From Candidatus Buchananbacteria bacterium (lineage in GTDB: Bacteria > Patescibacteriota > Patescibacteriia > 2-01-FULL-39-33 > JBAYJR01), in assembly GCA_041665005.1 (NCBI GenBank), contig JBAYJR010000004.1, positions 20,669 through 84,668 on the forward strand: DNA of 64,000 bases. Reading direction: 5' to 3'. Each line of letters begins with the position of its first letter. Positions within the stretch are counted from its first letter, which is position 1. The notes beneath the pieces were generated by a model. That model ran no database searches and was not told the origin of the DNA. It was given only the letters and a program-made list of their open reading frames with translations. The position numbers were made by a program, and so were the translations under genes. Below, piece by piece: positions 1,003 through 64,000 of the stretch.

Positions 1003-2169
1003 TTAACGAACATTGGTCTGCCGAGAAATATTAACTAAAATTCCCATCGCTGACAAGCCGGCTAACAAGGCGCTGCCGCCATAACTAATAAATGGCAGGG
1101 GCACGCCAGTTAAAGGCATTAAGCCAAGCATAGCGCTAATATTTAGAAAAGCTTGGCCGATTATCCAACTAATAATTCCCACCGCTAATAATTCACCAAA
1201 TTTATCCGGCGCCCGCCTAGCCACTTTAATGGCCCGAGCAAATAATACCAAGAAAGCTATAATTAAACCAGCGGAAAATAAAAAACCCATCTCTTCACCA
1301 ATTACCGCAAAAATAGAATCTCCCGTTACTTCCGGTAAATACTGAAACTTTTGGCGTGAATAACCTAAACCCCGACCCAACAGACCACCTGAACCAATGC
1401 CAATCATCGCCTGACGCAACTGGTAGCCTTGATCCTGACTCTCCACCGTGGCAGGATTTAAAAAAGTTTGTAGTCTTTGTTTAGCATGACTAGAGGTCAA
1501 CAATAAGCCCCCAACCAACACTAAGCCAACCGTCGCCAACACTGCCAAATGTCGATAACGAGCACCAGCCACAAAATATAAAGTAGCGCCCATTAACAAA
1601 AAAATTGACATAGTGCCAAAATCTGGCTGTAAAGCCACTAAACCTAGTACCACTAACAAAATAACAACCACCGGCAACACCCCCAGCCATAAATTCTTTA
1701 CGGCCTCGCCTTTTTGGGCCAAAAAAGCGCTAAAAAACAAAGCAAAAACTACCTTAGCCAACTCGGATGGCTGGACCGGTATGCCAAAAAGTTGCACCCA
1801 GCTTAAGGCACCTTTGTTTAAAGAAGTGCCCAAACCTGGAATAAAAACTGACAATAATAAGGCCAGCAAAGCCACTGCCACCCAGGTTTTAGCTTTAAGC
1901 CAAAAATGATAATCTAGGCGTGATAAAATAAAAAATAAAATTAGACCCGGTAAAAAGCCAACCAATAATTGATGCTTAATAAAATAAAAAGAATCACCAA
2001 ATTTTTGATACCCCACCGCCGAACCAGCCGAAGCCAGCATAAACAAACCGACAAAAACAATAAAAAATAACGAGCCGAGCAACCAATAATCCGGCCGATG
2101 CAAATAATTGCTGGCGGATAAATTTTGCGTTAAAAAACGCGAAGATGATCTGGTGCGACGTCTAATCAT
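1003..2169 (-). CDS. ftsW: FtsW/RodA (SEDS) family peptidoglycan polymerase / cell-division protein
   Basis: 388-aa polytopic membrane protein with a conserved C-terminal SEDS segment (...PLTGVPLPFISYGGSALLAGLSAMGILVNISRQ). Located between murD and murG as in dcw clusters. Confidence 0.8.
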   Translation of the reverse strand: MIRRRTRSSSRFLTQNLSASNYLHRPDYWLLGSLFFIVFVGLFMLASAGSAVGYQKFGDSFYFIKHQLLVGFLPGLILFFILSRLDYHFWLKAKTWVAVALLALLLSVFIPGLGTSLNKGALSWVQLFGIPVQPSELAKVVFALFFSAFLAQKGEAVKNLWLGVLPVVVILLVVLGLVALQPDFGTMSIFLLMGATLYFVAGARYRHLAVLATVGLVLVGGLLLTSSHAKQRLQTFLNPATVESQDQGYQLRQAMIGIGSGGLLGRGLGYSRQKFQYLPEVTGDSIFAVIGEEMGFLFSAGLIIAFLVLFARAIKVARRAPDKFGELLAVGIISWIIGQAFLNISAMLGLMPLTGVPLPFISYGGSALLAGLSAMGILVNISRQTNVR

Positions 2170-2171
2170 AA

Positions 2172-3590
2172 TTATTTTAATTTCTTAATATTTTTTAAAA
2201 ACTGCTGACCGCGATCAAATTCATTTTTAAACAAGCCAAAAGAGGCACAGGCTGGTGATAATAAAATTACCCCTCCCCGCTTAGCCTTTAGCCAAGCCAG
2301 CTTAACCGCCTCGGACATGCTGCTCACTTCAGCTAAACTGGAATAATTTTTTAAGTCAGCTTTAATTTTTTCCGTGCCCGCACCGGGCAATAATACTAAA
2401 TATTTAACCCGGCGCTTAATTTCTTTAGTTAATCCAGAAAATTCTAGTTTTTTATCAGCCCCCCCAGCAATTAAAATTATTTGCTGGGCAGTTTTGGTTA
2501 AGGCCTGCAAAGCAGCTAAGGTGGCATCTGGCGTCGTCGCCGTAGTGTCATTATAAAAATTTATACCGCGTAAACCTTTTACTAATTCCAACCGATTAGC
2601 TAGGCCCACAAATTTTAAACTTTGCTTGCGAACAATTTTTAAGGGCACTCCAAAAGCCAAAGCGGCCGTAGTGGCAATTAAAACATTTTTAACGTTGTGC
2701 TCACCTAAAACTTTTAATTGCTTAACGCGACAAATTTTTTGCTCTTGACCGAACCGTCTAAAATATAAAACTTGATTTTTAATAAACCCACCATTTTGTT
2801 CGGCAAAATATTTTTGACTAACCCAAAACCTTTGGGCTAAACAACGAATACCCATCGCTTTGGTAAATTTATTATCCAAATCAAACACTGCAATATCTGA
2901 TGGTTGTTGATAGCGCCAAAGATGTTCCTTGGCCGCGGCATATTCTTTAAGATTTTTATAAGTGTTTAAATGATCCGGCAAAATATTAGTAACGATTGCT
3001 AATTGCGGAGATTTTTTAAGATCAGCCAAGCTTTCTGCCATCCAAGAAGAAATTTCTAAAACTACCGGCGTGGTTGGTTTTAAATTTTTTAAGTGCAATA
3101 ATGGCGATTGCCCTAAATTACCCCCCAGTAAACTTTGCGGCTCCCAGGCTTTGATAATTTGGTAAAGTAAAGTAGCGGTAGTGCTTTTACCACGGGTGCC
3201 GGTCACGCCTAAAATTGGCCCGGCATAAAGTTTAATAAATAAACTAATATCGGTATAAATCGGAATTTTATTGGCCCGCGCCAACTTTAAAAAATTTGAA
3301 CTAGCTGGCACTCCCGGGTTGCGAATAATTATTTTAGCCGCGGCAAAATCTTTGGCCCGATGCTTGCCTAAAACAAAAGTTAATTTAGCCAAAGGATGTT
3401 GCTTAGCAAATTTTTGTAATTCCTTAACTGGTTTAGCAAGTTGTTTACTGGTTTTTAAATCGGTTATCAAAACTTTAGCTTGTTGCTCAATAAAAAATTT
3501 GGCCGCGGAAATACCGCTACCTTGTTCGTATAGGCCTAAGCCCATAATTACTACTTTTTGGCCAAAAAAATTGTTGGATTTTTCTACCAT
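2172..3590 (-). CDS. murD: UDP-N-acetylmuramoylalanine--D-glutamate ligase MurD
   Basis: 472 aa with a Mur-ligase P-loop (GVTGTRGKSTTATLL) and an N-terminal Rossmann segment (VVIMGLGLYEQGSG). Its position upstream of ftsW supports the murD call. Confidence 0.85.
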   Translation of the reverse strand: MVEKSNNFFGQKVVIMGLGLYEQGSGISAAKFFIEQQAKVLITDLKTSKQLAKPVKELQKFAKQHPLAKLTFVLGKHRAKDFAAAKIIIRNPGVPASSNFLKLARANKIPIYTDISLFIKLYAGPILGVTGTRGKSTTATLLYQIIKAWEPQSLLGGNLGQSPLLHLKNLKPTTPVVLEISSWMAESLADLKKSPQLAIVTNILPDHLNTYKNLKEYAAAKEHLWRYQQPSDIAVFDLDNKFTKAMGIRCLAQRFWVSQKYFAEQNGGFIKNQVLYFRRFGQEQKICRVKQLKVLGEHNVKNVLIATTAALAFGVPLKIVRKQSLKFVGLANRLELVKGLRGINFYNDTTATTPDATLAALQALTKTAQQIILIAGGADKKLEFSGLTKEIKRRVKYLVLLPGAGTEKIKADLKNYSSLAEVSSMSEAVKLAWLKAKRGGVILLSPACASFGLFKNEFDRGQQFLKNIKKLK

Positions 3591-3672
3591 ATAACTTGTC
3601 TAGTATAACAAAAATCCGCGGTTTTTTCAAACCGCGGAATAAAGTAAAAAAAATAAAATCAAAGACCAAAGA

Positions 3673-4737
3673 TCAAAGAATACTCACCAAAAAACGGCCA
3701 GCCTTGCTGGAATTGGGATTGCCCGGAGCGCCCTGAATCAAGTCGACCTGCGCAAAGTTACGATAGAAATAGACATACGGCACGCAGCCAAGTTTTTTTA
3801 AACAACTGCTAAGCAGATAACAAGCCTTGCTCGAACCTTGATAACCATCAATCACTTGGTTGGTTTGGGTTAAGTGGCTTAAGGCATAAATTAACCATGA
3901 TTCTGGGGTTAGACCTTGTTCACCTTTATACTGAGGGTCGGTTTGGAGTTGTTTAAGATAGTTATTGGGTGATTGGTTAGCTTCTGGTTGCTGGCGATGA
4001 GCGATGATTTTACCTTGGCCTTCGGGTGGAAGGTCGGGTAGGTCTTCAAGTAACAGGACTTGCCAGGCTTGGGTGGGTAAAAGTTCTTGTTTGGTTTTAC
4101 CTTGGTGATCAGTTTTGGAATATTCTTGGGGGAAATATGCTAAATCTCCTGTGGCTTCAGCTTCTACCAATCCAGCATCATCAAAAATAAACTTTGTGCC
4201 AATCTCTTTATTAAGCCCTAAGGGTTGATTTTGGGTATCTCGGAGCTCACCTCGCTGATGATGTTCTATTAGAGCCCTGTCATAAGCCTCTATTAGAGAA
4301 CCTATTGGTAAACCAAAAGGAACAAGGATTAGTTTAACAAAGCCTTGTTTAATTTTAGTTTCAAAAAACTTACGTTTTTCTAGCATTATTTCTTCAATCT
4401 GTTCTAGGGTGGGTATGGGGTATTCTTGCTTATCAATTGCTTCAATACCTAATTTGCCAGTGGAGAGGGTTTTTAGGAGGTTGTTTTTACGGAGAATGTC
4501 TACTTGGGCTTCATACTGGGCTTTAAGGTTTTCTGGGGTTAGTTCGGGGGTGTTGAGCCAGAGTTGGTCTTGGAGTTCTTGGAGGGTTTGTTCTAATTTA
4601 GTTTTAGCTTCTCTGATAAAGATAAGATCGTCTGACTTTCCTGTTTGCGGTAAACCGGCTAATTCTTGATTGAATGTTTGTTTTAGTTGTTTAAGAGACT
4701 CTAGTTCAAGGGTAAGTCTTTGACAGGATTGAGGCAT
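3673..4737 (-). CDS. Hypothetical protein, paralog family member 1: conserved N-terminal coiled-coil module plus C-terminal domain 'A'
   Basis: 354-aa ORF with a canonical ATG. N-terminus MPQSCQRLTLELESLKQLKQTFNQEL...; C-terminal ~290 aa are ~70-75% identical to ORFs 6049..7107 and 51558..52631 (shared LGIEAIDKQEYPIPTLEQI, ELLPTQAWQVLLLEDLPDLP, YLKQLQTDPQYKGEQGLTPESW). No signal peptide and no recognisable catalytic motif. Confidence 0.6.
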   Translation of the reverse strand: MPQSCQRLTLELESLKQLKQTFNQELAGLPQTGKSDDLIFIREAKTKLEQTLQELQDQLWLNTPELTPENLKAQYEAQVDILRKNNLLKTLSTGKLGIEAIDKQEYPIPTLEQIEEIMLEKRKFFETKIKQGFVKLILVPFGLPIGSLIEAYDRALIEHHQRGELRDTQNQPLGLNKEIGTKFIFDDAGLVEAEATGDLAYFPQEYSKTDHQGKTKQELLPTQAWQVLLLEDLPDLPPEGQGKIIAHRQQPEANQSPNNYLKQLQTDPQYKGEQGLTPESWLIYALSHLTQTNQVIDGYQGSSKACYLLSSCLKKLGCVPYVYFYRNFAQVDLIQGAPGNPNSSKAGRFLVSIL

Positions 4738-4762
4738 AAAATATTTTTAAAAAATATTATAC

Positions 4763-6037
4763 TTAAATCTGTTTATTTATTTCTAAATACTTAACAAAAG
4801 TTTTAAAATCAACCGGAAGATCTTGGGCTAATCTATCTAAAGGACTTTTGTCTGCAAAAAGACCCTTTCTGCTTGCTATTTTTTCAAATATTTCATTTCT
4901 AAAGCCCCAAGCCTGAGGAGAATCTAAACCAGCTAAACTTCTAACCAAGCCAAAAAATATATCAGTATTTATGGTTGAATTTTCAGTAGTGGCTAAGATT
5001 AGATTTCTTAAATTCCACGCCTCTGGGGAGTCTAATCCCGCCAAACTTTTGGCAAGCTCTTTATTATAATTTGTATTTAATAAATTCCTTCGCCACTCCC
5101 AAGCTTGCTCAGAATCCAAGCCGGTTAAACTTTCAATAGTATTAATTATATTTGCTCCTCCTACTGTTAAACCCAACTTTTTTCTAAACTCCCAAGCTCT
5201 GGCAGAGTCTAAACCGGCCAAACTGGACATAAGTTTGTTACTACGACTAATCTTATTTTGTTTTGTCGTAGCTTTTAAAATATCTCCCCTAAACTCCCAG
5301 GCGGCCGGAGAATCCAAACCTTTTACACTCTCAATTATACGATCCAAATCTACTTGCTGGTCAAATAATTCTGCTCTAAATTCCCAGGCGGCCGGAGAAT
5401 CCAAACCGACCAAGCTAAGGACTAACTCGGGTATATTTTCCTTTTGCTTTAACAATTTTTTTCGCCACTCCCAAGCCTGAGGAGAATCTAAACCATCTAA
5501 ACTACGAGCAATATAACCATTAGTTAATTCGTCCGACAACTTTTCTCGCCACTCCCAAGCTCTGGCAGAATCCAAGCCAGTCAAGCTAGTTGCTATAAAG
5601 CCTTTTCTTCCTACCTGGGCTAAAAGATTTTCTCGCCATTCCCAAGCTTTAGGAGAATCCAAACCAGTTAAACTGATTTCCAAACAACCTTCGGCTACTT
5701 TTTGTGCTAATAACCTTTCTCTTAATTTCCAAGCCGAATCGGAATCAAAATATTTTAATCCCAAGGCAATAAAATTTTGATCAAAATTTTCGGCTAAAAG
5801 TTGCTCGTAATATTCAAGACAATGTTGTTCAAATTCGGCATAAATAAATTCCGGCATTGACCGCTCAATTTTTTTTAAAGCAAATTTAAAATCTTCTTTA
5901 ATTTTCCTAAGCAAAGCTAAGTCCTCGGACTTTTTGGAGTCTAGATCTTTAATTTTAGTTAATTCCAAATCAAACTGTTGTTTAAGCGTTTTAAGGGATT
6001 CTAGTTTGGTAGTAAGTTCTGGGCAAAGTTGGGGCAT
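4763..6037 (-). CDS. Hypothetical protein, paralog family member 2: same N-terminal module fused to ten tandem ~30-aa helical repeats (motif sLxGLDSPxAWEWRxxLL)
   Basis: 424-aa ORF. The first ~35 codons are near-identical at the DNA level to the 5' end of ORF 6049..7107. The remainder is ten tandem repeats (GLDSPKAWEWRENLL, GLDSARAWEWREKL, GLDSPQAWEWRKKLL, GLDSPAAWEFRAEL, ...) resembling TPR/HEAT-like alpha-solenoid units. Confidence 0.6.
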   Translation of the reverse strand: MPQLCPELTTKLESLKTLKQQFDLELTKIKDLDSKKSEDLALLRKIKEDFKFALKKIERSMPEFIYAEFEQHCLEYYEQLLAENFDQNFIALGLKYFDSDSAWKLRERLLAQKVAEGCLEISLTGLDSPKAWEWRENLLAQVGRKGFIATSLTGLDSARAWEWREKLSDELTNGYIARSLDGLDSPQAWEWRKKLLKQKENIPELVLSLVGLDSPAAWEFRAELFDQQVDLDRIIESVKGLDSPAAWEFRGDILKATTKQNKISRSNKLMSSLAGLDSARAWEFRKKLGLTVGGANIINTIESLTGLDSEQAWEWRRNLLNTNYNKELAKSLAGLDSPEAWNLRNLILATTENSTINTDIFFGLVRSLAGLDSPQAWGFRNEIFEKIASRKGLFADKSPLDRLAQDLPVDFKTFVKYLEINKQI

Positions 6038-6048
6038 AAATATTTTAT

Positions 6049-7107
6049 TTAAGAAATACTTACTGCAAACCGGCCGGTACCGTCAGAACCGGAATCGTCC
6101 GGATCATACTGAACCAAGTAGACCCGAGCACGGCCACGGCCGAAGCCGGCGAACGGCACGCTGCCAAATTCTTTAAAACAACTACTAAGTAAATAACAAG
6201 CCTTACCCGAACCCTGATAATTATCAATCACTTGGCTAGTTTGTTCTAAATGACTTAGGGCATAAACTAGCCAGGATTCCGGGGTTAAACCTTGTTCACC
6301 TTTATATTGAGGGTCAGTTTGGAGTTGTTTAAGATAGCTATTGGGTGATTGGTTAGCTTCTGGTTGCTGACGTTTAGCTATGATTTTACCTTGACCTTCA
6401 GCTGGAAGGTCGGGTGAGTCTTCAAGTAGTAGGACTTGCCAGGCTTGGGTGGGTAGAAGTTCCTGTTTGGTTTTACCTTGATGAGTAGTTTTGGAGTATT
6501 CTTGGGGAAAATATACCAAGTCTCCTTTTTCATCAGCCTTTGCGTATTCAACCAAGTCATTAATAGGTTCTCCCTTAAGCTCTAAGGGTTTATTTTGGGT
6601 GTCCAAAAGTTTGCCTTGCTGGTGGTGTTCGGTTAGGGCATCGCCATAGGCCTCTTTCAGAGAGCTAATTGGTAAGCCAAAGGGAACAAGAACTAGCTTG
6701 ACAAAACCTTGATTGATTTTGGTTTTAAAGAATTCTGGTTTTTCTAGAATTGTTTCTTTAATCTGTTCTAGGGTGGGTATGGGATATTCCTGCTTATCAA
6801 TTGCTTCAATGCCTAGTTCACCAGTGGTGAGGGTTTTTAGGAGGTTGTTTTTACGGAGGAGGTCTACTTGGGCTTCGTACTGAGTTTTAAGGCTTTCTTG
6901 AGCTAGTTCAAGAGTTTCTATCCATATTTTGTTTTGAAAGTCTTGGAGGGTTTGGTTTAGTTTGGATTTTATATTTCTGATGAAAATAAGATCGTCTGAC
7001 TTTTTGGAATCGAGATTTTTAATTTTAGTAAATTCCAAATCAAACTGTTGTTTAAGCGTTTTAAGGGATTCTAGTTTGGTAGTAAGTTCGGGGCATTGAG
7101 AATTCAT
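6049..7107 (-). CDS. Hypothetical protein, paralog family member 3 (N-module plus domain 'A')
   Basis: The track ORF 6049..7128 opens with a TTG. The conserved family start MNSQCPELTTKLESLKTLKQQFDLEF... corresponds to the ATG at 7105-7107. The C-terminal domain is homologous to 3673..4737 and 51558..52631. Confidence 0.6.
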   Translation of the reverse strand: MNSQCPELTTKLESLKTLKQQFDLEFTKIKNLDSKKSDDLIFIRNIKSKLNQTLQDFQNKIWIETLELAQESLKTQYEAQVDLLRKNNLLKTLTTGELGIEAIDKQEYPIPTLEQIKETILEKPEFFKTKINQGFVKLVLVPFGLPISSLKEAYGDALTEHHQQGKLLDTQNKPLELKGEPINDLVEYAKADEKGDLVYFPQEYSKTTHQGKTKQELLPTQAWQVLLLEDSPDLPAEGQGKIIAKRQQPEANQSPNSYLKQLQTDPQYKGEQGLTPESWLVYALSHLEQTSQVIDNYQGSGKACYLLSSCFKEFGSVPFAGFGRGRARVYLVQYDPDDSGSDGTGRFAVSIS

Positions 7108-7151
7108 AAAGATAGCAATTAACAACAAAAACTATTAAATCAGTTAACCAA

Positions 7152-8195
7152 CTATATTTTATCCAACAAAAATATAATCAAGCCAATCGCCGCCATTACT
7201 CCGGAGATTACCCAAAACCGCATCACAATTTTTGTTTCCGGCCAACCAATCGCCTCCAAGTGATGGTGGATTGGTGCGGATAAAAAAACTTTTCGCTTAA
7301 ATACCTTTTTAGAAAAGACTTGGATGATTACTGATAAAGATTCAATTACAAACAATAAACCAATAATTGGCAACAACAAAACTTGATTAGTTAACATCGC
7401 CACAATTCCTAAAACCACCCCCAAAGACATTGCCCCAGTATCTCCCAAAAAGAATCTAGCGGGATTAATATTAAACCACAAGAAGGCTAATAGCGCTCCC
7501 GAAATCACCCCGCACAAAGTTGCTAAATCATATTTACCTTGAGCAAAAGCAATAATACCATAAGAAGCAAAAGCGGCCATTAAGGTGCCACCGGCCAAAC
7601 CATCCAAACCATCAATTTCATTGACCGAAAAAGCGGTGGCCACAATTACAAAAATAAACATTGGAAGATACCACCAGCCAATTTCATAATTACCCATAAA
7701 TGGCACATGAATAAAATTCCAACCCAATTTATAATAAAACCAATAAGCTCCTACGGTCGCAATTAAAGTGTAAGTTAACAAACGGGCCTTAACGCTTAAA
7801 CCGCCACCCTTAGGGCCCCAGCGCCAAACATTTAATAAATCATCAACTAATCCAACTACCGCCGCGGCCACCAAAGCACCCAAAGGCAACCAGGTTTGAC
7901 TACGACTTAAAAAATTTAAATCCGACCAAAAACCGTCAAAATATTGACTGAGGTAATAAACTGCCAAGGCTAAAACTAAAGTAGTCACCCACACCAACAA
8001 GCCACCCATCGTCGGCGTGCCGGATTTTTTTTGATGAATGGCCGACATAATCGGCGCGGCTTCGGAAGCGCGAATTTGCTTGCCTAGTTTATATTTATAC
8101 AAAAAGTGAGTCAACAGCGGCGTCCACATTACTGCCAACACAAAAGACAAAGTAGTTAAGAAAAAAGTTTTAGCAATTAACAAATTTAAACTCAT
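7152..8195 (-). CDS. mraY: Phospho-N-acetylmuramoyl-pentapeptide transferase MraY
   Basis: 347-aa polytopic membrane protein carrying the MraY/WecA signature (VNEIDGLDGLAGG) and the conserved C-terminal HHHLE motif (SAPIHHHLE). Confidence 0.9.
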   Translation of the reverse strand: MSLNLLIAKTFFLTTLSFVLAVMWTPLLTHFLYKYKLGKQIRASEAAPIMSAIHQKKSGTPTMGGLLVWVTTLVLALAVYYLSQYFDGFWSDLNFLSRSQTWLPLGALVAAAVVGLVDDLLNVWRWGPKGGGLSVKARLLTYTLIATVGAYWFYYKLGWNFIHVPFMGNYEIGWWYLPMFIFVIVATAFSVNEIDGLDGLAGGTLMAAFASYGIIAFAQGKYDLATLCGVISGALLAFLWFNINPARFFLGDTGAMSLGVVLGIVAMLTNQVLLLPIIGLLFVIESLSVIIQVFSKKVFKRKVFLSAPIHHHLEAIGWPETKIVMRFWVISGVMAAIGLIIFLLDKI

Positions 8196-8566: not shown

Positions 8567-8640
8567 AAAAATATTTTACCAAAAAACCCAGGCTTTGTCC
8601 AATTAATTCAAACACTGACCTAGGTTAATAATCCCCTAAA

Positions 8641-8668
8641 TAAAGCAGGGACAAAATTATTTGTCCCT
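8641..8668 (-). terminator. Candidate intrinsic terminator downstream of ORF 8681..9100
   Basis: Perfect 10-bp inverted repeat CAGGGACAAA-tta-TTTGTCCCTG at 8641-8665. On the minus strand it is followed by a short U-rich stretch (CUUUAUUU). Confidence 0.4.
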
Positions 8669-8680
8669 GAAAAAAACTTG

Positions 8681-9237: not shown

Positions 9238-10971
9238 ATGCTTAACCAACATCATTTATCCAAAATAATTGTCCAAGCCAAAATCGTGACTGAGGACAAA
9301 TTAAAAGAGCTGGAAACTGAAGCCCAAAAAAGGCAACAAAGCCTGGAAGATTATATAATTTCCCAAAAAATGATTAGCGAGGAAGCCCTTTACGAAACCG
9401 CAGCCAAGTATTACCAAGTTCCTTTCATTAATTTAAAAAATCAAGTAATCCGTAAAGATATTCTTTTTTTAGTGCCGGATATAGTCGCACAAAATCAACA
9501 AATCGTTGCCTTTGAGGCGGATAATAAAAACATCAGCCTGGCCACTTTAGATCCAGTTAACCTAGAAATTTTTGAGTTTATCAAGAAAAAAGCCAATTTG
9601 GAACCGAAAATATACCTAACCACCCCGGAAAGTATCAAAGAAGTAATCAAGCAGTATCACAAAGGTTTACAGGCAGAATTTAAAGATTTAGCTAAAGAAG
9701 AGGAAGTAGCTACCCTTAGTGAAAAAGGGGCTAAAGATTTAAAACAACTCGCCGAAGATTTACCGGTAGTACGCATTGTTGATACTTTATTAGAATACGC
9801 TATTTTAGAAGGTGCTTCGGATATCCACATTGAACCCGCCGAAAAAGAAATTAATGTCCGCTACCGAGTTGACGGTATTTTACGCAACGTTATGACTTTG
9901 CCTAAAACCGTCCAGTCGGGAGTAATCGCTAGAATTAAAATTTTGTCTAACCTAAAAATTGATGAACATCGCCTGCCTCAAGACGGCCGTTTTAAAGTCC
10001 AAACCAATGAATATAAAATTTCCTTCCGGGTTTCCATTATTCCCACCTTTGAAGGCGAAAAAGTGGTCTTGCGTTTACTAAATGAGCAAGCCAGAATTTT
10101 AACCTTAGAACAACTGGGCTTGCAAACAAAATCTTTAGAGGTAGTTAAAAGAAATATTACTAAGCCCCATGGCATTATTTTAGTCACCGGACCCACCGGC
10201 TCCGGCAAAACCACTACCTTATATACCGTTTTAAATTTACTAAACACTCCTCAGGTTAATATCTCTACTGTAGAAGACCCTATTGAATACCGTATGAACG
10301 GCGTTAACCAAAGCCAGGTTAACCCCCGCATTGGCTACACCTTTGCTTTAGGCTTACGCGCCTTGATGCGTCAAGACCCTAATATCATTATGGTTGGAGA
10401 AATTCGTGATACCGAAACCGCTGATATCGCCATTAACGCCGCCATGACCGGACATTTAGTCCTAAGTACTTTTCACACCAACGACGCCGCCACCGCCCTG
10501 CCCCGCTTACTAGACATGGGCATACCTTCTTTTTTAATCGCCTCCACTATTAATATTATTGTAGCGCAACGTTTGGTACGCAAAGTTTGTCAAAATTGTT
10601 TAGAAAGTTATAACTTAGATAAAAAATCCGCCACCGAAATTACTCAAGAATTCGATATCCCCTCCTTAATAAAAATGTTAGAAAAAGAAAAACTGGCTAG
10701 TAGTAAACAAACCTTAGAAACCATGCTTTTTTATCGTGGCAAGGGCTGTAAACAATGTAACAACGAAGGTTTTAAGGGGCGCCTGGGTATTTACGAAGTC
10801 CTAGAAATTACTCCCGAAATTTCTGATTTAATTTTAAAACGAGGCAGTTCAGACGAAATTAGAAATAAAGCCATTGAGCAGGGCATGCTTACTTTATTAC
10901 ATGATGGTTTTATTAAAGCCAAAACTGGCTTAACCACCATTGAAGAAGTTTTACGTGTTAGTAAAGAATAA
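9238..10971 (+). CDS. pilB: Type IV pilus assembly / type II secretion ATPase (PilB/GspE family)
   Basis: 577 aa with Walker A (GPTGSGKTT), Asp/His boxes and the C-terminal tetracysteine motif (CQNC...CKQCNNEGFKGRLG). N-terminal GspE-N-like domain. Confidence 0.9.
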   Translation: MLNQHHLSKIIVQAKIVTEDKLKELETEAQKRQQSLEDYIISQKMISEEALYETAAKYYQVPFINLKNQVIRKDILFLVPDIVAQNQQIVAFEADNKNISLATLDPVNLEIFEFIKKKANLEPKIYLTTPESIKEVIKQYHKGLQAEFKDLAKEEEVATLSEKGAKDLKQLAEDLPVVRIVDTLLEYAILEGASDIHIEPAEKEINVRYRVDGILRNVMTLPKTVQSGVIARIKILSNLKIDEHRLPQDGRFKVQTNEYKISFRVSIIPTFEGEKVVLRLLNEQARILTLEQLGLQTKSLEVVKRNITKPHGIILVTGPTGSGKTTTLYTVLNLLNTPQVNISTVEDPIEYRMNGVNQSQVNPRIGYTFALGLRALMRQDPNIIMVGEIRDTETADIAINAAMTGHLVLSTFHTNDAATALPRLLDMGIPSFLIASTINIIVAQRLVRKVCQNCLESYNLDKKSATEITQEFDIPSLIKMLEKEKLASSKQTLETMLFYRGKGCKQCNNEGFKGRLGIYEVLEITPEISDLILKRGSSDEIRNKAIEQGMLTLLHDGFIKAKTGLTTIEEVLRVSKE

Positions 10972-10986
10972 ACTAATTTACCTTTT

Positions 10987-12054
10987 ATGAACTTAGAAAA
11001 AGCTTGGCAAAATTGGCAAAAAATTCCAGCGATGCAAAAAATTTTTATGGTCCAAAATTTGGCCGTCATGATTAAGGTCGGCATTTCTTTGTCAGAAGCT
11101 CTAAAAACTTTAGCCCTGCAAAGTACTTCTAAAAAATTAGCTAATATTTTGGTTGATCTACAACAAAAAGTAGAAAAAGGCAACGAACTAGGCAAATCTT
11201 TAGAAATCTATCAAAAAGATTTTGGCGAACTTTTTGTTAATATGGTTAAAGCTGGCGAAGCTTCCGGTAAACTGGAAGATGTTTTAAACCAACTTTATAT
11301 TCAAATGAAAAAAGATCATGAAATTTCTAGCAAAATAAAAGGAGCGATGATCTATCCCATTATTGTTGTCACCACCATGTTGGTAGTTGGTGTTTTAATG
11401 ATGATTTATGTTATTCCTAGCTTAACTGTAGTCTTTAAAGAGGTGGATGTAGAACTGCCTTTGGCTACTCGCATTTTAATTAACACCTCTGATTTTATGG
11501 CCGCCAATACTTTGTGGCTAGGCTTAGCCGGTTTGGTTTTAGTAGTTGCAATCATTAAATTCTTTAGTACCGAAACTGGTAAATTTTGGCTATCAAAATT
11601 TACCGTCTATGCGCCAATTATTTCCCCCGTGGCCAAAAAAATAAACTTAGCAAGATTTTCTCGTACTTTAAGCTCTTTATTAAAAACCGACATAGCCATT
11701 ATTCAAACTTTGCAAATTACTAGCCAAGTTATCACTAATCGTTTATACCGCCAAGCTTTATTAGAGGCAGCCGAAAAAGTAAAAAAAGGGGTCCGATTAG
11801 CAGAAATTTTTAATGACTACCCCCGACTATTCCCCCCCTTGATTATTCAAATGATTACGGTGGGCGAAGAAACCGGGGCAATTGATGATATTTTAGATAA
11901 AATTGCTAATTATTACGAAGAAGATGTTACTCAAACCATGAACACCCTACCTTCAATTATTGAGCCAGTTTTAATGGTAGTTTTGGGCGTCGCAGTCGCC
12001 GGCATGGCCGTAGCGGTAATTATGCCAATGTATACTCTAACCGAAACAATGTAA
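10987..12054 (+). CDS. pilC: Type IV pilus / T2SS inner-membrane platform protein (PilC/GspF family)
   Basis: 355 aa with a duplicated GspF domain and 3 TM segments. Immediately downstream of pilB. Confidence 0.85.
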   Translation: MNLEKAWQNWQKIPAMQKIFMVQNLAVMIKVGISLSEALKTLALQSTSKKLANILVDLQQKVEKGNELGKSLEIYQKDFGELFVNMVKAGEASGKLEDVLNQLYIQMKKDHEISSKIKGAMIYPIIVVTTMLVVGVLMMIYVIPSLTVVFKEVDVELPLATRILINTSDFMAANTLWLGLAGLVLVVAIIKFFSTETGKFWLSKFTVYAPIISPVAKKINLARFSRTLSSLLKTDIAIIQTLQITSQVITNRLYRQALLEAAEKVKKGVRLAEIFNDYPRLFPPLIIQMITVGEETGAIDDILDKIANYYEEDVTQTMNTLPSIIEPVLMVVLGVAVAGMAVAVIMPMYTLTETM

Positions 12055-12512
12055 TGCTAAATCAAAGCTTTCGTCACGGTTTTTCGCTAATTGAAATGGT
12101 GGTTTTAATTTCCATTATCGGCGTAGTGACCATGATAACTATGCCCCTAATTCAAAACTACCAACCAACCTTAAGGCTAAACACTGCTTCCCGAAATTTA
12201 GCCACTGATTTGCGTTACGCCCAGCAACGCACAGTTACCGAGCAAACCAACTACCAAATTGCTTTTGATTTACCTAATCGCACTTATCAGGTTATCAAGA
12301 AAGCCACTGGCCAAATAATAAAAACCGTTACTATTAGCAACGACTTAAATTGGTCCATTAATCAACCGGGCTTTACTAATGATCGCGTGGAATTTGTAAT
12401 AACCGGAGCCGCCTTACAAGCCGGCCAATTAGTAATTACTAATCGTCAAAATCGTTTTTTAACTATTGAAATAAAACCTTCTGGTTATGTTAAAATTTCC
12501 CAAACCAACTAG
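12054..12512 (+). CDS. Prepilin-type N-terminal cleavage/methylation domain protein (pseudopilin)
   Basis: Class III signal ...RHG|FSLIEMVVLISIIGVV. The start overlaps the pilC stop (TAATG). Confidence 0.7.
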   Translation: MLNQSFRHGFSLIEMVVLISIIGVVTMITMPLIQNYQPTLRLNTASRNLATDLRYAQQRTVTEQTNYQIAFDLPNRTYQVIKKATGQIIKTVTISNDLNWSINQPGFTNDRVEFVITGAALQAGQLVITNRQNRFLTIEIKPSGYVKISQTN

Positions 12513-12921
12513 ACCCGGCTTTACTTTAATCGAAGTGGCAATTTCTATTTTTTTAGTTTCTGCCATTGCCACTACTATTTTAAGTATGTTCCCGTTTATT
12601 CTAAGAATTGGCAAAAATTCCGAAATGAATTCTTTAGCCACTGCTCTAGCTCAGGGAAAAATTGAAGAGCTATCAACCGGTGACTACGACAGCTTAACAA
12701 CCGGCACTTTGGAAAATCATGTTCGTGTATCCACCAATCCTGAAAGTTTTTTTTACAACTACTGGCGCACTACTACCATTAATTACCTTGACACCAACTT
12801 AATAACTTCGGCTAGCGACCAAGGTTTAAAAAAAGTGGCCGTTACTATTTATTGGAAAATTGCAATTTCTTTACCGATCGAAAAAAGTCTAACTATTCAA
12901 TCAATAATTGCCAAAAAATGA
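12487..12921 (+). CDS. Type IV pilin-like protein
   Basis: Canonical prepilin motif KPTRPG|FTLIEVAISIFLV. Confidence 0.7.
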   Translation: MLKFPKPTRPGFTLIEVAISIFLVSAIATTILSMFPFILRIGKNSEMNSLATALAQGKIEELSTGDYDSLTTGTLENHVRVSTNPESFFYNYWRTTTINYLDTNLITSASDQGLKKVAVTIYWKIAISLPIEKSLTIQSIIAKK

Positions 12922-13487
12922 AGCTAGCTTACAAAAACCTAGGATTTACTTTAGCCGAAACCATCGTCGCGATTGGTCTTTTAGCCTTATTAGTTTTACT
13001 GGTACTTTCTGTTTTTATGTTAGCCCAGAAAGCTTATTGGCAAAATGATAACCGCGCGGAATTAATCCAAAATGGTCGCGTAATTTTAGATCGCTTAGAA
13101 AGAGAACTAAGACAAGCCAGCGATATTGTAACCGAAATCCCTCCAGACGATAGCAACTCGCTCTTAATACCCCATGAAATTATCTTCCAAGATGGTCATG
13201 ACTCTACCACTATTCATTATTTGCGTTATTACCTAAATGGCCAAAATTTAAAAAGACAAATAATTGCTTATTACTTCAGCGAAAGTCCTAACACCTATGT
13301 CAAACATGACTCCGTGGATATCTATAGCAACCCGCCCCAGAAACTAATCCTAGAAGACAACATTGTGGGTGAATACCTAGACAATATTAGTTTCTATGGT
13401 AATGACATTATTTATATTTTTTTACAACTGAGCAACAAAAATAAACAAATTAATTTACTAACTGGATTTTATGCGAGAAATTTATAA
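12918..13487 (+). CDS. Type IV pilin-like protein
   Basis: The internal ATG at 12918 gives MKLAYKNLG|FTLAETIVAIGLLALLVLLV, a prepilin signal. The track ORF starts earlier (12852), overlapping the previous gene. Confidence 0.6.
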   Translation: MKLAYKNLGFTLAETIVAIGLLALLVLLVLSVFMLAQKAYWQNDNRAELIQNGRVILDRLERELRQASDIVTEIPPDDSNSLLIPHEIIFQDGHDSTTIHYLRYYLNGQNLKRQIIAYYFSESPNTYVKHDSVDIYSNPPQKLILEDNIVGEYLDNISFYGNDIIYIFLQLSNKNKQINLLTGFYARNL

Positions 13488-14715
13488 AAAAATAGACTCC
13501 AAGGGTTTTGCTTTAATTGCTTCCATGGTAGTAATGACGGCCTTAATTCTGTTAGGAGTTTACGCTTTAAATTTTACTATCGGCGAACATGGTATTTCAC
13601 AAAGCCAAAGCCAGGCCACTAAAACTTACTACTTTGCCGAGGCCGGAATTAATGAAATGATTCATAAAGTCAAAAGTGATTACAATACTACTCAAGCTTT
13701 TTTAAACGGCTCACTTAATTCTAGCTTTACCATCAACCGAAGTGATGTCTTGGCTGATCCCAAAGCTTCTTACTTAGTAACTATTATTAGCACTGGCCCC
13801 GCTACCGCACAAATTATCGCTACTTCCACCTACCAAATCGGCAACACTGTCGCCCGCCGCGTTATTAAAGCAGATATTAATAAGGCTACTAACAGCACCG
13901 AAACCTGGCCCAGTGGTTTGGTAGCTGGTGGACTCGATGGTTATATTAAATTTACCGGCAACAACGGCAACTATACTGAAACCGGCGGAAAAATTCATGC
14001 TAACGGCTTTATCCAAGTTACCGGCAACAACACTACCGTTAAAATTAACAACGGCTCACTTTCTGCCAAACAATCAATCACCGTTGCTGGCAATAATAGC
14101 AGTATTGCAACTCCCCCGCCCTCCTACCAATCAACTCCCACCTCTACTACTATAAACCTACCACAAATTGATTTTAACTCGGCCGCTACTACCTCCTGGT
14201 ACAACCGGGCCAACACTAAAATGACTTGTACCGAATTTCGTAATTTATTTGGCAATAACCAAACCATCAATTTAACCGGCGTTACTTATGTTTCCAACTG
14301 CACCGGCTTAACTATTAGCGGCAATAACAATACTTTGAACATTAAGGGTATTTTAGTAATCTATGGCGGTATTACTTTTGGTGGTAATAATTTAATTTTT
14401 AAAATTTCTCCTGAAACCGATCATCCGGAAAACGGCGCCGGAATTTTAGTTAGTGGTAACCTGACGATTAACGGCAATAATTTGAGCGCTAATGTTAACG
14501 GCTTAATATACACCGCTGGTAATTTAAACATTGGCGGCAATAATCCAATTTTAGCTTTCAAAGGTGGGATTGTTTGTAACTCAGCCGACTTTGGTCATAA
14601 CAATTCTACTTTAAATTTAATTTACGATGAATCAGTAATCTTACCGCCTTTAGCGCCCGCCCTAAATACTGATTCACCAATCATCAGAATTAACCATTGG
14701 GAAGAACAATATTAA
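13471..14715 (+). CDS. Large pilin-like protein (PilX-N-like N-terminus plus Gly-Asn-Asn repeat beta-solenoid-like region); possible pilus tip or minor pilin adhesin
   Basis: N-terminus KG|FALIASMVVMTALILLG is a degenerate prepilin signal lacking Glu5. The body contains about 8 repeats of x(T/S)GNN (TGNNGNYTETGG, VTGNNTTVKINNG, SGNNNTLNIKG, NGNNLSANVNG, GGNNPILAFKG). Confidence 0.5.
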   Translation: MREIYKKIDSKGFALIASMVVMTALILLGVYALNFTIGEHGISQSQSQATKTYYFAEAGINEMIHKVKSDYNTTQAFLNGSLNSSFTINRSDVLADPKASYLVTIISTGPATAQIIATSTYQIGNTVARRVIKADINKATNSTETWPSGLVAGGLDGYIKFTGNNGNYTETGGKIHANGFIQVTGNNTTVKINNGSLSAKQSITVAGNNSSIATPPPSYQSTPTSTTINLPQIDFNSAATTSWYNRANTKMTCTEFRNLFGNNQTINLTGVTYVSNCTGLTISGNNNTLNIKGILVIYGGITFGGNNLIFKISPETDHPENGAGILVSGNLTINGNNLSANVNGLIYTAGNLNIGGNNPILAFKGGIVCNSADFGHNNSTLNLIYDESVILPPLAPALNTDSPIIRINHWEEQY

Positions 14716-51557: not shown

Positions 51558-52631
51558 TTAAAAAATACTCACCGCAAAACGAACAGATTTTCTAGGACTA
51601 GAATACGTCGGCTCGTTCTCATCCAACTCGACCCGCGCATGACTACGGTAAAAATAGGCATACGGCACGCCGACGGGTTTTACAAAACAACTATTAAGCA
51701 GGTTGCAAGATTTACCTAAACCCTGACTATTATCAATCACTTGGTTAGTTTGTTCTAAGTGGCTTAAGCCATAAACCAACCAGGATTCTGGAGTTAAACC
51801 TTGTTCACCTTTATACTGAGGGTCAGTTTGGAGTTGTTTAAGGTACTCATCCGGCGTTTGATCGGATTCTGGTTGCTGACGATTAGCTATGGTTTTACCT
51901 TTACCTTTAAATGGAAGGTTTGGCAAGTCTTCAAGTAACAGGACCTGCCAGGCTTGGGTGGGTAAAAGTTCCTGTTTGGTTTTACCTTGATGATCATCAG
52001 AAAATTCTTTGGGGAAATATACTAATTCACCAGTGGCTTCGGCTTGGATATAATATTTAGTATCCTCATTATCAATAAACCTACCACCGACATATCCATC
52101 AAGCTCTAGGAGCTTACCTTGAGTGTCCAATAGCTTGCCTTGTTGATAATTTTCCATTAAAGCATTGCTATAAGCATCTATTAGGGAACTAATTGGCAAA
52201 CCAAAGGGAACAATAATTAGTTTAACAAAGCCTTGTGGTATTTTGGTTTCCAAGAGTTCTCGTTTTTCTAACATCCTTTCTTCAATCTGTTCTAGGGTGG
52301 GTATGGGGTATTCCTGCTTATCAATTGCTTCAATGCCTAATTCGCCAGTGGAAATTTTCTTTAGTAAGCCAGCCTTGATGAGAATTTCTTTCTGAAATTC
52401 ATATTGGGCTTTAAGGTTTTCTCGGGTTAACTCAGGAGTTTCTAGCCATATTTTGTTTTGGAGGTCTTGGAGGGTTTGGTTTAGGTTGGCTTTGATGTTT
52501 CTGATGAATATAAGATCATTAGACTTTTTGGAGTCTGAGTTTTTGACTTTAGACAATTCCAAATCAAACTCTACCTTGAGTTGTTTGAGGGAGGCTAGTT
52601 TGGTAGTGAGTTCGGGGCAAAGTTGGGGCGT
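51558..52631 (-). pseudogene. Paralog family member 4 (N-module plus domain 'A') whose ancestral ATG is ACG; possible pseudogene or non-AUG-initiated gene
   Basis: The reading frame continues upstream of the track start (TTG at 52560-52562) and encodes TPQLCPELTTKLASLKQLKVEFDLE, colinear with the MPQLCPELTTKL... starts of the paralogs. The homologous start codon at 52629-52631 is ACG. An in-frame TAA lies 2 codons upstream and the only in-frame near-cognate codons are ATT or TTG. Confidence 0.5.
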
Positions 52632-52641: not shown

Positions 52642-53811
52642 TCAATCTACTTTATCACCATCCCAGATTTTAACAGCCTCATCCCAACTACCCGAAACAA
52701 TGCGGCCATCGGGGAGAACTTGGATGGCGGACACAGAATCAGTATGTCCTTTGAGGGTTTGAGTATTTTGATAGTTGCCTTGGCTATCTGGTTGCCAAAT
52801 CTTAATGGTGCTGTCAAAACTACCCGAAACAATGCGGCCATCGGGTAGGACTTGGAGGGTCCACACAGGGCCATTATGTCCTTTGAGGGTTTGGGTGTTT
52901 TGATAGTTGCCTTGGCTGTCTGGTTGCCAGATTTTGATAGTTTTATCAGAGCTACCCGAAACTATCCGGCCATCAAGGAGGACTTGGAGGGTAGGCACAG
53001 AATTAGCATGTCCTTTGAGGGTTTGGGTATTTTGATATTTGTTTTGGCTGTTTAATTCCCAAATTTTAATAGTGCTATCATCACCCGAAACAATGCGACC
53101 GTCGGGTAGGACTTGGAGGGTCCACACAGGGCCAGTATGTCCTTCAAGAGTTTGAGTGATTTGATAGTTGTTTTGTTTGTCTAGTTCCCAGATTTTAATA
53201 GTGTTGTCATTACTACCCGAAACAATACGACTATCAGGGAGGACTTGCAGAATGAACACAGAATCAGCATGTCCTCTAAGAGTTTGTGTATTCTGATAGT
53301 CGCCTAGGCTGTCTGATTTCCAGATTTTAATAGTTTTATCATCACTACCTGAAACAATGCGGCTATCGGGTAGGACTTGAAGGGTGAGCACAGAATCAGT
53401 ATGTCCTTTGAGGGTTTGTGTATTTTTATAATTGCCTCGTCTATCTAGTTGCCAGATTTTGATAGTGTCATCATGACCACCCGAAACAATCCGACCATCG
53501 GTTAGGGTTTGCAGAGCACGCACAGAATTAATATGCCCTTCGAGAGTTTTAATTTCGTGATAATTTATTTTCTTTTCTACCGTGGTTAGCTCTTGAGGAG
53601 AATTGGCATAAAACTTTTGCCATTCAATTAGCGTAATTTGTTTCCGAAGCTCTTTAAGGGCTTGGTTTAGTTTAATCTTAGCTTCTCTGACCAAAACTAA
53701 ATCCTCTGTCTTGCCTGTTTGGGGTAGACTGGATAATTCCAAATCAAACTGTTGTTTGAGTTGTTTGAGGGAGGCTAGTTTGGTGGTAAGTTCGGGGCAA
53801 AGTTGGGGCAT
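52642..53811 (-). CDS. Paralog family member 5: N-terminal module fused to a seven-bladed WD40 repeat domain
   Basis: 389 aa, MPQLCPELTTKLASLKQLKQQFDLELSSLPQTGKTEDL...WQKFY..., followed by 7 near-identical WD40 units (GHTDSVLTLQVLPDSRIVSGSDDKTIKIW ...). Confidence 0.7.
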   Translation of the reverse strand: MPQLCPELTTKLASLKQLKQQFDLELSSLPQTGKTEDLVLVREAKIKLNQALKELRKQITLIEWQKFYANSPQELTTVEKKINYHEIKTLEGHINSVRALQTLTDGRIVSGGHDDTIKIWQLDRRGNYKNTQTLKGHTDSVLTLQVLPDSRIVSGSDDKTIKIWKSDSLGDYQNTQTLRGHADSVFILQVLPDSRIVSGSNDNTIKIWELDKQNNYQITQTLEGHTGPVWTLQVLPDGRIVSGDDSTIKIWELNSQNKYQNTQTLKGHANSVPTLQVLLDGRIVSGSSDKTIKIWQPDSQGNYQNTQTLKGHNGPVWTLQVLPDGRIVSGSFDSTIKIWQPDSQGNYQNTQTLKGHTDSVSAIQVLPDGRIVSGSWDEAVKIWDGDKVD

Positions 53812-53973
53812 AGAAATATTTCAAAATTTAACTGATTTTTGACATCTAAACTATGCTTATCTTAACAAAAACCCATACTTTTTACAAACAATTTAACTTG
53901 GTTGGCCATCTTTAGTTCAACAACTAATCTTAGGTTCTATTGGGTGTTTTAATTATTATTTATTTTTAACCCT

Positions 53974-54312
53974 GTCAGAAGCACCCTGGGTCTGGGTGAC
54001 AATTGAGCGTCAAGGATTAAGAATGAAAAACAAACAAACTATCAGCTAGTAGAGCGCCAGCCCCAGGCTGGTCCGCCTGGGGCGGAAATTTGTCACCCAG
54101 CAGTTTTGGATACTTCCTGCCTGCCGGCAGGCAGGTTGCTGCCAAAAGTATCAAGAAATAATAAGGAGGGTGTTCTGCTGAGAAGTAGTCACTTCGGGAG
54201 TAATAGTGACAACCTAAATTAATCTGGATTCCGGGTCAAGCCCGGAATGACAAAGGGATTGGATCCTGAATCCGCCGCCGATGGCGGGGCAAGCAAACCA
54301 GGAATGACAAAT
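53974..54312. repeat. Structured GC-rich intergenic repeat element, copy 2
   Basis: Homologous to 30332..30610 at both ends. Double hairpin at 54057-54086; long-range pairing CTGGGTGACAAAT (53988-54000 region) with ATTTGTCACCCAG (54086-54100); an internal perfect palindrome CCTGCCTGCCGGCAGGCAGG; a ~55-nt internal duplication of the GGAATGACAAA end. Confidence 0.6.
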
Positions 54313-54363
54313 AAAAAAACACCTCACAATCCCCCGCCGCCAAAAGATCGTTTGGTGCTTTAT

Positions 54364-62325: not shown

Positions 62326-62394
62326 TATACTTTTAACTTTCTACTTTCTGCTTTCTACTTTTTACTTTCAACTTTCTACTTTCCGTTTTCTATT
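62326..62394. repeat. Imperfect tandem repeat, ~14-nt unit (minus-strand GAAAGTAGAAAGTA x5)
   Basis: Plus strand ...AACTTTCTACTTTCTGCTTTCTACTTTTTACTTTCAACTTTCTACTTTCCGTTTTC..., immediately downstream of the stop of the DsbA-like gene. Confidence 0.5.
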
Positions 62395-63139
62395 TCAACG
62401 CCGCATCAATCGCGGTTTTAATCTGTTCAAATGGTACTGCCCCAGCAATTACTTGACCATTAATTACTACCGCCGGAGTTCCCTGAATCCCCGCCGCTAA
62501 GCCTTGCTGCTGATCCGCCTCCACCTTATCACCATATTTTTTAGCGGCATAGCATTCACTAAACTTATCCGTCGCTACCCCTAATTGTTTAGCTAGACTG
62601 GCATACAAGGTATCACTTAAAGCTGTTTGATTAGCAAATAACTTATCCACATACTGCCAATAAACTTCTGTCCCACTAATATTAGCGACGCATTCCGCCG
62701 CATTAGCTGCTGGCCGAGCGTTGGGATGAATTGAATCTAACGGAAAATTTTTAAAGACTACGCGAATTTTATTCCCATAAGTTGTTAAAGCTTGTTTAAC
62801 CGCGGGATGAAAACGGCCGCAATAAGGACATTGAAAATCTGAAAATACCACCATCGTAACCTTGGCATCAGGATTGCCAATAATATTATCGGCGCTGGTT
62901 ATTTTAATCTCCACCGGGCCAGTTACGGCCGCGGGTTGATTGACCGCCGCATTAACATTCGCCTTAACTACCGGTTTAGTGGTAGTACCGGTATTTTTGC
63001 CACCAACAAATAACACTAACAAAATGATAAAACCAACCGTGCTAATAACCGCTATACCGCCTAATAAACCCATAAAAAAACTAACTTGAGGCGTCGCCGT
63101 ACTTAAGCCACTATTGGCCTTTTTAAAAATGTTCCACAT
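62390..63139 (-). CDS. DsbA-family thiol:disulfide oxidoreductase, membrane-anchored
   Basis: N-terminal TM helix and a thioredoxin fold with a CPYC active site (FSDFQCPYCGRFHP). Confidence 0.7.
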   Translation of the reverse strand: MWNIFKKANSGLSTATPQVSFFMGLLGGIAVISTVGFIILLVLFVGGKNTGTTTKPVVKANVNAAVNQPAAVTGPVEIKITSADNIIGNPDAKVTMVVFSDFQCPYCGRFHPAVKQALTTYGNKIRVVFKNFPLDSIHPNARPAANAAECVANISGTEVYWQYVDKLFANQTALSDTLYASLAKQLGVATDKFSECYAAKKYGDKVEADQQQGLAAGIQGTPAVVINGQVIAGAVPFEQIKTAIDAALK

Positions 63140-63955: not shown

Positions 63956-63969
63956 AAAAATAAAATTTA

Positions 63970-64000
63970 AAAAACACTCACCGCAGTACGAACTCCAAAA
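63970..64000 (-). CDS. 3' end of a further paralog (domain-'A' type) running off the window end
   Basis: The minus-strand frame reads ...FGVRTAVSVF-stop (TAA at 63967-63969), matching the C-termini of the domain-A paralogs (GRFLVSIL, GRFAVSIS, VRFAVSIF). Only 10 codons are visible. Confidence 0.35.

Follow-up and report, generated by a model that had tools for sequence, protein, structure and literature searches.

What holds a protein family together when its members agree in their first sixty or so residues and in little else? The question is raised by a 64,000-nt stretch of a Candidatus Buchananbacteria genome (Patescibacteria, or candidate phyla radiation, CPR), referred to below as the window: positions 20,669–84,668 of contig JBAYJR010000004.1, from a metagenome-assembled genome (MAG) with locus tags WCW02_. 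Six genes on its minus strand, g1 to g6, open with a common N-terminal module of about 60 residues, the handle, which the open reading frame (ORF) listing and its translation place in front of differing C-terminal domains, the heads. The main head, domain A, is the variable (target) protein of CPR-type diversity-generating retroelements (DGRs) and has a C-type-lectin fold. The window holds part of a lineage-specific expansion of this family.

Domain A follows the handle in g1 (3673..4737; WCW02_02025, 354 residues), where the handle comprises residues 1–62 (about 4552..4737), in g3 (6049..7107; WCW02_02035, 352 residues, beginning MNSQC...) and in g4 (51558..52631; WCW02_02280). The handle is joined to ten helical repeats of about 29 residues in g2 (4763..6037; 424 residues), to a seven-blade WD40 propeller in g5 (52642..53811; 389 residues) and to a short head with a domain-A-related C-terminus in g6 (63230..63955; WCW02_02345, 241 residues). 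The members form tandem pairs or triplets, as the original prediction, made from the sequence without database searches, had described; the gaps between them measure 11–25 nt. That prediction listed seven ORFs with the module. Six stand: their 70-residue N-termini find one another in reciprocal tBLASTn searches of the window (all pairs E 1e-8 to 1e-30), which reveal no copy beyond g1–g6. The seventh, 63970..64000, is the tail FGVRTAVSVF* of protein P0019 (WCW02_02350; 3' end at 63967..64000, minus strand), a domain-A gene that continues beyond the window. On an overlapping ENA contig this gene is found at 8910-9989 of locus L023 with the N-terminus MPQLCLELTTKL, and a further WD40 member precedes it. 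Seventeen columns are identical in all six window modules. They include the cysteine at position 5 (Cys5), whose invariance had been noted beforehand.

What, then, is domain A? Profile libraries give little help. Pfam, NCBIfam and PADLOC searches of all six window proteins and of other handle proteins returned only WD40 matches and coiled-coil noise, a search of PDB sequences with domain-A and handle profiles gave coiled-coil noise only, and a Foldseek comparison with the PDB yielded nothing below E = 1. The C-type-lectin fold was recognised after domain A was re-modelled alone; about 150 residues of extra alpha/beta domain sit N-terminal to the lectin core. The genomic context of domain-A homologs in other Patescibacteria is more informative (loci L003, L004, L005, L015, L017 and L018; L-numbers denote fetched DNA loci). 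A reverse-transcriptase (RT)-like neighbour recurs there. Locus L003 contains a 121-nt repeat in three copies, which are the 3' ends of two domain-A genes and one intergenic copy, and the intergenic copy departs from the genic ones almost solely at its own A positions. A systematic scan for adenine-biased repeat pairs extended this pattern. Counted as mismatches at template adenines over all mismatches, the two variable regions (VRs) of L003 score 23/25 (VR1) and 20/22 (VR2), L004 13/13, L005 18/20, L015 10/12, L017 17/17 and L018 18/18. In all six of these loci the variable copy is formed by the final ~115 nt of a domain-A homolog. Four of them (L003, L004, L017 and L018) include or adjoin an RT ORF, two of these ORFs being scored as RVT_1 by Pfam, and Avd-like ORFs occur at two, one scored as bAvd. 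Adenine-biased pairs of template repeat (TR) and VR, together with RVT_1 and bAvd neighbours, establish that the relatives possess complete DGRs and that domain A is their variable protein. The family, which the original prediction considered impossible to name from the sequence, can therefore be named.

Adenine mutagenesis in a DGR turns AAY codons of the template into NNY codons (Y being C or T), leaving the third base fixed. This footprint is present in the window genes, and it lies inside the C-type-lectin-fold domain at the C-terminus. Across 21 domain-A paralogs of this genome, variability is far greater in the last ~45 residues than elsewhere, and entropy is highest there. The corresponding VR-like segments are on the minus strand at 3694..3831 in g1 (about residues 303–348), at about 6073..6207 in g3 and at about 51582..51716 in g4. 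Within the segment variation is greater at codon positions 1 and 2 than at position 3, the opposite of what the rest of the gene shows. The variable codons interleave with the invariant series GTG CCG … TTC … CGT … TTG … CCG … CGT TTT GCG GTN AGT ATT; written as the expected template, the conserved frame is …GTGCCG-AAY-GMC-AAY-TTC-AAY-CGT-AAY-AAY-GCG-CAG-GTC-…-CGTTTTGCGGT. At hypervariable VR columns 120 of 130 codons (92%) are NNY, compared with 169 of 300 (56%) at other variable columns (Fisher p = 5.6e-15). When 11 genes including divergent ones are compared, the values are 82% and 61% (p = 1.6e-13). Four-fold-degenerate codons end in C or T in 53/54 hypervariable cases and in 439/600 elsewhere (p = 3.7e-6), and in 33/66 at conserved columns of the VR segment itself. 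An amino-acid preference does not account for the C/T bias, because the bias persists in four-fold-degenerate codons. From this mutational footprint it is concluded that the VRs of the window were written by a DGR. We infer that a DGR may still be acting on them.

A second trace lies behind the stop codon of g1. The 11-mer TTTGGTCTTTG (3660..3670, minus strand) starts 3 nt past that codon, and an identical copy stands 3' of the stop in two verified DGR targets, at L017 (5016-5026) and L018 (4682-4692). In the 64 kb of the window and 24 loci it is otherwise exact only twice, the second match in the window being at 25185, and protein gene P0006 retains just TGATCTTTG of the element. CPR DGRs may have this putative motif as a conserved element of their target sites. 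The idea of a DGR hairpin 3' of the VR was discarded: g1 alone has a strong hairpin, which looks like an ordinary terminator. The domain-A gene g4 stands somewhat apart. It has the most non-NNY (NNR) codons in its VR (6/26), and its first codon is ACG (52629..52631) where the paralogs have ATG. The NCBI product is shorter, the stop codon of g5 lies 8 nt upstream, and the sole in-frame upstream alternative start is ATT. The NNR codons and the lost ATG suggest that g4 may be a decaying copy; it may also use a non-canonical start.

The DGR loci of the relatives share further elements. A motif, GCGGTGAAWAGMMACC, occurs at 2160-2175 of L003, 7241-7256 of L004 and 4758-4773 of L018, about 85 nt downstream of the VR and upstream of the TR, and near-variants are found in L005, L015 and L017. 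This motif may correspond to the 5' portion of the DGR RNA. Large proteins of 650–900 residues without a Pfam match recur beside RT and targets, accompanied by AAA_5 or AAA_14/DUF4143 ATPases; these genes are found at L003 3812-5986 and 7140-9146, L004 4702-5982 and 8903-11296, L010 10298-12883 and L021 419-5470. The taxon labels of some homologs are unexpected. Typical Patescibacteria-type domain-A genes occur at L002 and L013 in MAGs labelled Gammaproteobacteria and Bdellovibrionales, and these could reflect mis-binning or horizontal transfer. Another domain-A homolog, P0073, is annotated as Ktedonobacteraceae.

How far does the family extend? Within this one genome 21 domain-A paralogs, at 44–100% identity, are spread over at least seven contigs. 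The census of handle genes stands at a minimum of 21 with domain A and four with WD40 repeats, together with three of the g6 type, one repeat protein and one truncated copy, all of them with WCW02_ locus tags. At least 30 genes thus belong to the family, or about 3% of a genome whose size, ~1000 genes, is estimated from locus tags that reach 05020 in steps of 5. Further arrays were found at five loci of the same organism (L001, L022, L023, L025 and L026), with members co-oriented and 10–30 nt apart. Their orders are A–A (twice), A–WD40–A–g6-type–A, WD40–A–g6-type, A–WD40–A and A–g6-type.

In several respects domain A is a conventional DGR target. The VR is at the extreme C-terminus, as in Mtd of Bordetella phage BPP-1, TvpA of Treponema denticola, TaqVP of Thermus aquaticus and the 'clade 2' targets of CPR bacteria (Roux et al. 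2021, PMC8144416). DGR targets are modular, and those of CPR bacteria are reported to have no recognisable membrane or other domains (PMC8144416); the window proteins, likewise, are without a transmembrane or signal sequence. Unlike typical targets, the handle proteins carry the conserved N-terminal Cys-hairpin and the ~150-residue alpha/beta domain. Multiplicity is a further point of comparison. The genome of Trichodesmium measures 7.75 Mb. The largest published target sets that were found are eighteen TR/VR loci in Trichodesmium erythraeum (PMC8867640), and seven remote targets in Treponema denticola and eight tandem targets in Stenotrophomonas (PMC5758913). As in these systems, many lectin-fold paralogs are dispersed in one genome and are presumably served in trans, but a similar or higher copy number is here accommodated in ~1 Mb rather than 3–8 Mb. 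The one or two adjacent targets typical of CPR DGRs (PMC5758913) also contrast with the 21 scattered paralogs of this genome.

The handle is the second half of the question. AF2 predicts two helices, residues 2–27 and 35–59, with a per-residue confidence (pLDDT) of 70–89, below that of the head. The original prediction had proposed to check whether the module is an already described domain; no domain match was found in Pfam, NCBIfam or PDB sequences. A word-index protein search with the handle profile gave no match, a search of representative genomes found none, and a search of metagenome contigs found one locus only, from the same organism. When 1.84 billion representative proteins were searched exhaustively with the profile, only 16 matched, all from residue 1 onward. 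Their heads are domain A, the g6 type, WD40, GLxGLDSPEAW repeats and three others; the handle is invariably at residue 1 and is borne by at least six head types. One more protein that matches the profile, the 993-residue repetitive P0076, was judged spurious from its sequence. With a broader hidden Markov model the handle is detected in Azambacteria, Berkelbacteria, Magasanikbacteria and other Patescibacteria as well, where it precedes homologs of domain A. It is found on the verified targets in L003 and L004 and also in a four-gene array in L012. It is facultative, since the verified targets in L005, L015, L017 and L018 are without it. The L012 array (5116-9132; FW300_bin.57) has the order typeX–A–A–typeX, with the Cys-hairpin in all four genes. 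The 'type X' head, of 292 residues, ends …GGLSNV…GFRLxVRF and has no Pfam match. In hhalign comparisons the heads of 'type X', P0082 and P0087 showed no relationship to domain A or to the g6 type.

Among 23 diverse Patescibacteria handles no residue is invariant except Met1 and the cysteine; Phe22 comes close. The consensus reads M-P-x-x-C-x-Q-L-…-L-K-x-L-K-x-x-F-D-L, a short turn, then …L-W-P-F-E. The cysteine is at position 3–7, preceded by 2–6 residues that are polar or proline. No hydrophobic N-terminus is present (maximum 12-residue hydropathy in the first 40 residues ≤0.71), in agreement with the predicted lack of a signal peptide. In g5 and a second WD40 member Cys5 is the sole cysteine, which precludes an internal disulfide and makes its role intermolecular or chemical. 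The handle is probably an assembly or docking element, homotypic or heterotypic. No earlier description of it was found in the literature, which was covered in part, and one may exist.

The remaining heads are binding scaffolds too, as had been supposed, and those with WD40 repeats may vary by another route. Pfam confirms seven WD40 repeats in g5, the number expected. Its blades are a tandem repeat at the DNA level (52663..53506, period 132 nt, 6.4 copies, 77% matches, no indels), and WD40 members vary in blade number, with lengths of 300, 389, 395 and 414 residues. This repeat is a possible second route to variation. In the NCBI MAG the assembly breaks at one of the WD40 copies. Ten GLDSxxAWxxR units are counted in g2 by regular expression, again as predicted; they have no Pfam match, are alike at the protein level only and form no tandem repeat in the DNA. 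The heads had been described as entirely different from one another. This is mostly so, but the supposedly orphan g6 head shares homology with the C-terminal part of domain A over its last ~60 residues (hhalign 94%, E 1.6e-7, N-modules excluded).

Why do the handles of such different genes remain alike? Pairs with different heads share nucleotide sequence in the 5' module only: g2 and g3 are 92.7% identical over 109 nt, g4 and g5 89.4% over 94 nt. The DNA alignment that had been proposed as a check on domain swapping thus finds similarity limited to the module rather than uniform along the genes, and the picture of a constant handle on exchangeable heads holds. The likeness begins ~8–14 nt before the start codon and stops inside the module. 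Conservation of the module DNA was therefore predicted correctly, but that of ~110 nt upstream was not; the 100% upstream matches are accounted for by the 3' end of the gene before. The linker of the handle comes in three variants (…LPQTGK…, …K(I/V)KNLDSKKS… and …KAQSLSPNKPED…), each of them present on several head types. For 8 of 14 genes the best match to the 81-nt module is in the adjacent gene with a different head (permutation P = 6.5e-4), although some of the margins are small. The pattern points to local gene conversion or head replacement.

Housekeeping genes surround the arrays. The g3-g2-g1 triplet interrupts the cell-wall (dcw) cluster (1003..8195, minus strand), flanked by mraY at 7152..8195 and murD at 2172..3590; ftsW is at 1003..2169. 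Between g1 and murD are a strong terminator-like hairpin (3615..3638, minus strand; 10-bp stem, GAAA loop, T-run) and a promoter-like site (3602..3630). Another pair sits between two MacB/FtsX permease genes. A plus-strand type IV pilus/type II secretion-like cluster, 2 kb from the triplet, spans 9238..14715 and possibly reaches 17231; it encodes a T2SSE ATPase, a T2SSF platform protein, and GspH-like, N_methyl and PilX_N pilins. Directly downstream of g6, and at this locus only, is a gene for a membrane-anchored DsbA/thioredoxin-like protein (62390..63139, minus strand), which could be relevant to the invariant cysteine of the handle. Just past the window end, at L023 7156-7974, the WD40–A–g6 triplet is immediately preceded by an ATP-cone plus Mrr_cat restriction-endonuclease-like gene. 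The gap of 553 nt on the 5' side of g5 (53812..54363) contains no convincing gene and no Rfam match at the gathering threshold. It holds G+C-rich palindromes, such as CCTGCCTGCCGGCAGGCAGG and CCCCAGGCGGACCAGCCTGGGG, in an A+T-rich genome.

What could such proteins do together? The explanation that we favour, and consider reasonably probable, is that a common handle bundles binding heads, the main one being a lectin tip diversified by a DGR. The error-prone RT of a DGR copies the template repeat and randomises its adenines, converting AAY to NNY, and the cDNA replaces the variable region to give new ligand-binding tips. The window copies would either be remote targets, served by a DGR at another place in the genome, or targets that were orphaned recently. 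The WD40, ten-unit helical-repeat and shortened lectin-like heads would be alternative binding scaffolds on one handle, and local gene conversion or module exchange would keep the handles of co-resident genes alike. By linking one molecule to another, Cys5 may allow different heads to be bundled or displayed on one partner. In this way many specificities could share one partner or build multivalent complexes, and the family would be a repertoire for binding changing ligands. A more ambitious form of the proposal makes the Cys-hairpin a homotypic adaptor not recognised before, one that gathers lectin heads, recombining WD40 propellers and helical heads on one partner, with all 21 dispersed domain-A genes as live remote targets of one trans-acting DGR. 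It is distinctly unlikely in that full form.

Several observations weigh against the favoured explanation. Neither the window nor the ~117 kb of this genome sampled in total (the window and loci L001, L022, L023, L025 and L026) contains a TR, RT, Avd or adenine-biased repeat. The VR-to-TR spacer motif GCGGTGAAWAGMMACC is absent from the window, and a protein search for CPR DGR RTs found none from this MAG among the 120 matches listed of 2890. CPR DGRs are reported in surveys to have, as a rule, a single adjacent target (PMC5758913). The post-stop element is kept by g1 only, and most copies run into the next gene within ~11–25 nt. The five core VRs differ also at some synonymous and non-adenine positions, which indicates that they are not all fresh copies of one template. 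Finally, the handle proteins show no localisation signal and no effector-type head.

The location of such a repertoire in the cell can be argued both ways. An intracellular role is favoured by the lack of an export signal and by head types known from NLR-like conflict systems (PMC10907252), and a surface role by the precedent of surface DGR targets and by the episymbiotic lifestyle proposed for CPR bacteria. If the proteins acted at the surface, the handle would be a non-classical export or anchoring signal, with Cys5 lipid-modified or disulfide-linked to the pilus or envelope, and the heads would be extracellular adhesins of an episymbiotic CPR cell used in host binding or phage evasion. Analogues exist in the lipoprotein DGR targets TvpA and LdtA and in the variable lipoprotein families of mycoplasmas. 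The known targets of cellular DGRs are mostly surface proteins (PMC8144416), and an unpaired invariant N-terminal cysteine suits covalent anchoring. The type IV pilus cluster near the g1–g3 triplet and the membrane-anchored DsbA-like oxidoreductase beside g6 would fit, but each is close at one locus only, and at the loci examined no secretion gene recurs beside the family. The proteins have neither a signal peptide nor a lipobox, hydrophobic segments are lacking, and only 2–6 polar residues precede the cysteine. Surface adhesins of this kind are considered rather unlikely. Alternatively, the family could consist of intracellular sensors of a conflict system, in which the handle serves as a small homotypic domain, adaptor or effector, similar to NLR effector-associated or coiled-coil domains. 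The hypervariable heads would detect phage or host proteins, and ligand binding would trigger handle-mediated assembly with a partner. C-type-lectin/FGE (formylglycine-generating enzyme), WD40 and TPR-like domains are the sensors of STAND/NLR-like and DGR-diversified conflict systems, in which shuffling and hypermutation are combined (Doré et al. 2024, PMC10907252), and those systems, too, have a small helical module at the N-terminus of several proteins of one genome. Recombination between the 132-nt WD40 repeats, at 77% identity, would permit diversification, and the handle-bearing targets of L003 and L004 adjoin AAA_5 and AAA_14/DUF4143 ATPases and large uncharacterised proteins. Nevertheless, no family member has a fused NTPase domain such as the central STAND/MoxR NTPase of conflict proteins, no effector partner with the same module was identified, and among the 16 representative matches viewed no recognisable effector (peptidase, nuclease or TIR) is joined to the handle. 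The handle has no sequence similarity to described adaptor domains in Pfam, PADLOC reports nothing specific, and the arrays of this genome are located among housekeeping genes. A sensor function of this type is considered improbable.

The likeness to polymorphic effector and toxin families, suggested in the original prediction, fares worst. A constant trafficking domain would there deliver interchangeable C-terminal toxins, and the constant N-terminus, variable C-terminus, tandem arrays and recombination restricted to the 5' module are all in keeping with it. The heads, however, are a lectin fold, WD40 and helical repeats, which are scaffolds for binding. Pfam, NCBIfam and PADLOC gave no toxin, LXG, WXG, Rhs, PAAR or secretion match, no toxin-like C-terminus and no immunity gene, and gaps of 11–25 nt leave no room for immunity genes between members. 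With neither toxin/immunity pairs nor the trafficking domain of a known secretion system, polymorphic toxin cassettes are rejected as highly improbable. Mycoplasma variable lipoproteins and LXG/WXG100 substrates share the same architecture of constant 5' module, tandem arrays and junction recombination, and the helical-hairpin shape of the handle recalls WXG100. These likenesses end where the defining motifs are concerned: the handle has neither a lipobox nor a WXG/LXG motif, and the heads bind. A bacterial lipoprotein was discarded for want of a Sec/Tat signal peptide or lipobox before the cysteine. A WXG100/LXG substrate of a type VII secretion system was also set aside: the turn reads LPQTGK, KNLDSKKS or TGDL without W/L-x-G, there is no Pfam match, and the annotated parts of the window contain no gene for such a system.

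The hypermutation mechanism itself is already known, as are CPR DGR targets as a class. What appears to be new is the handle, its sharing with heads that are not DGR targets, and the density of footprinted paralogs in a ~1-Mb genome. DGRs are enriched in the CPR. Where and how their targets act there is an open question (PMC8144416). The handle links these targets to WD40 and helical-repeat proteins across Patescibacteria and offers a concrete element for the study of localisation, assembly and partner binding. The target load is extreme, with at least 21 footprinted genes and at least 30 family members among ~1000. Two layers of diversification, the shuffling of modules and heads between neighbouring genes and targeted hypermutation, are found together, a pairing known until now from large multicellular bacteria (PMC10907252). 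Were its targets active in trans, the organism would provide a compact natural model for multi-target DGR homing. Should the adaptor and a single trans-acting DGR both prove real, a CPR cell of ~1 Mb would possess a combinatorial, antigen-receptor-like repertoire and the densest DGR target load known, and there would be a possible reason why CPR targets do without localisation or signalling domains of their own.

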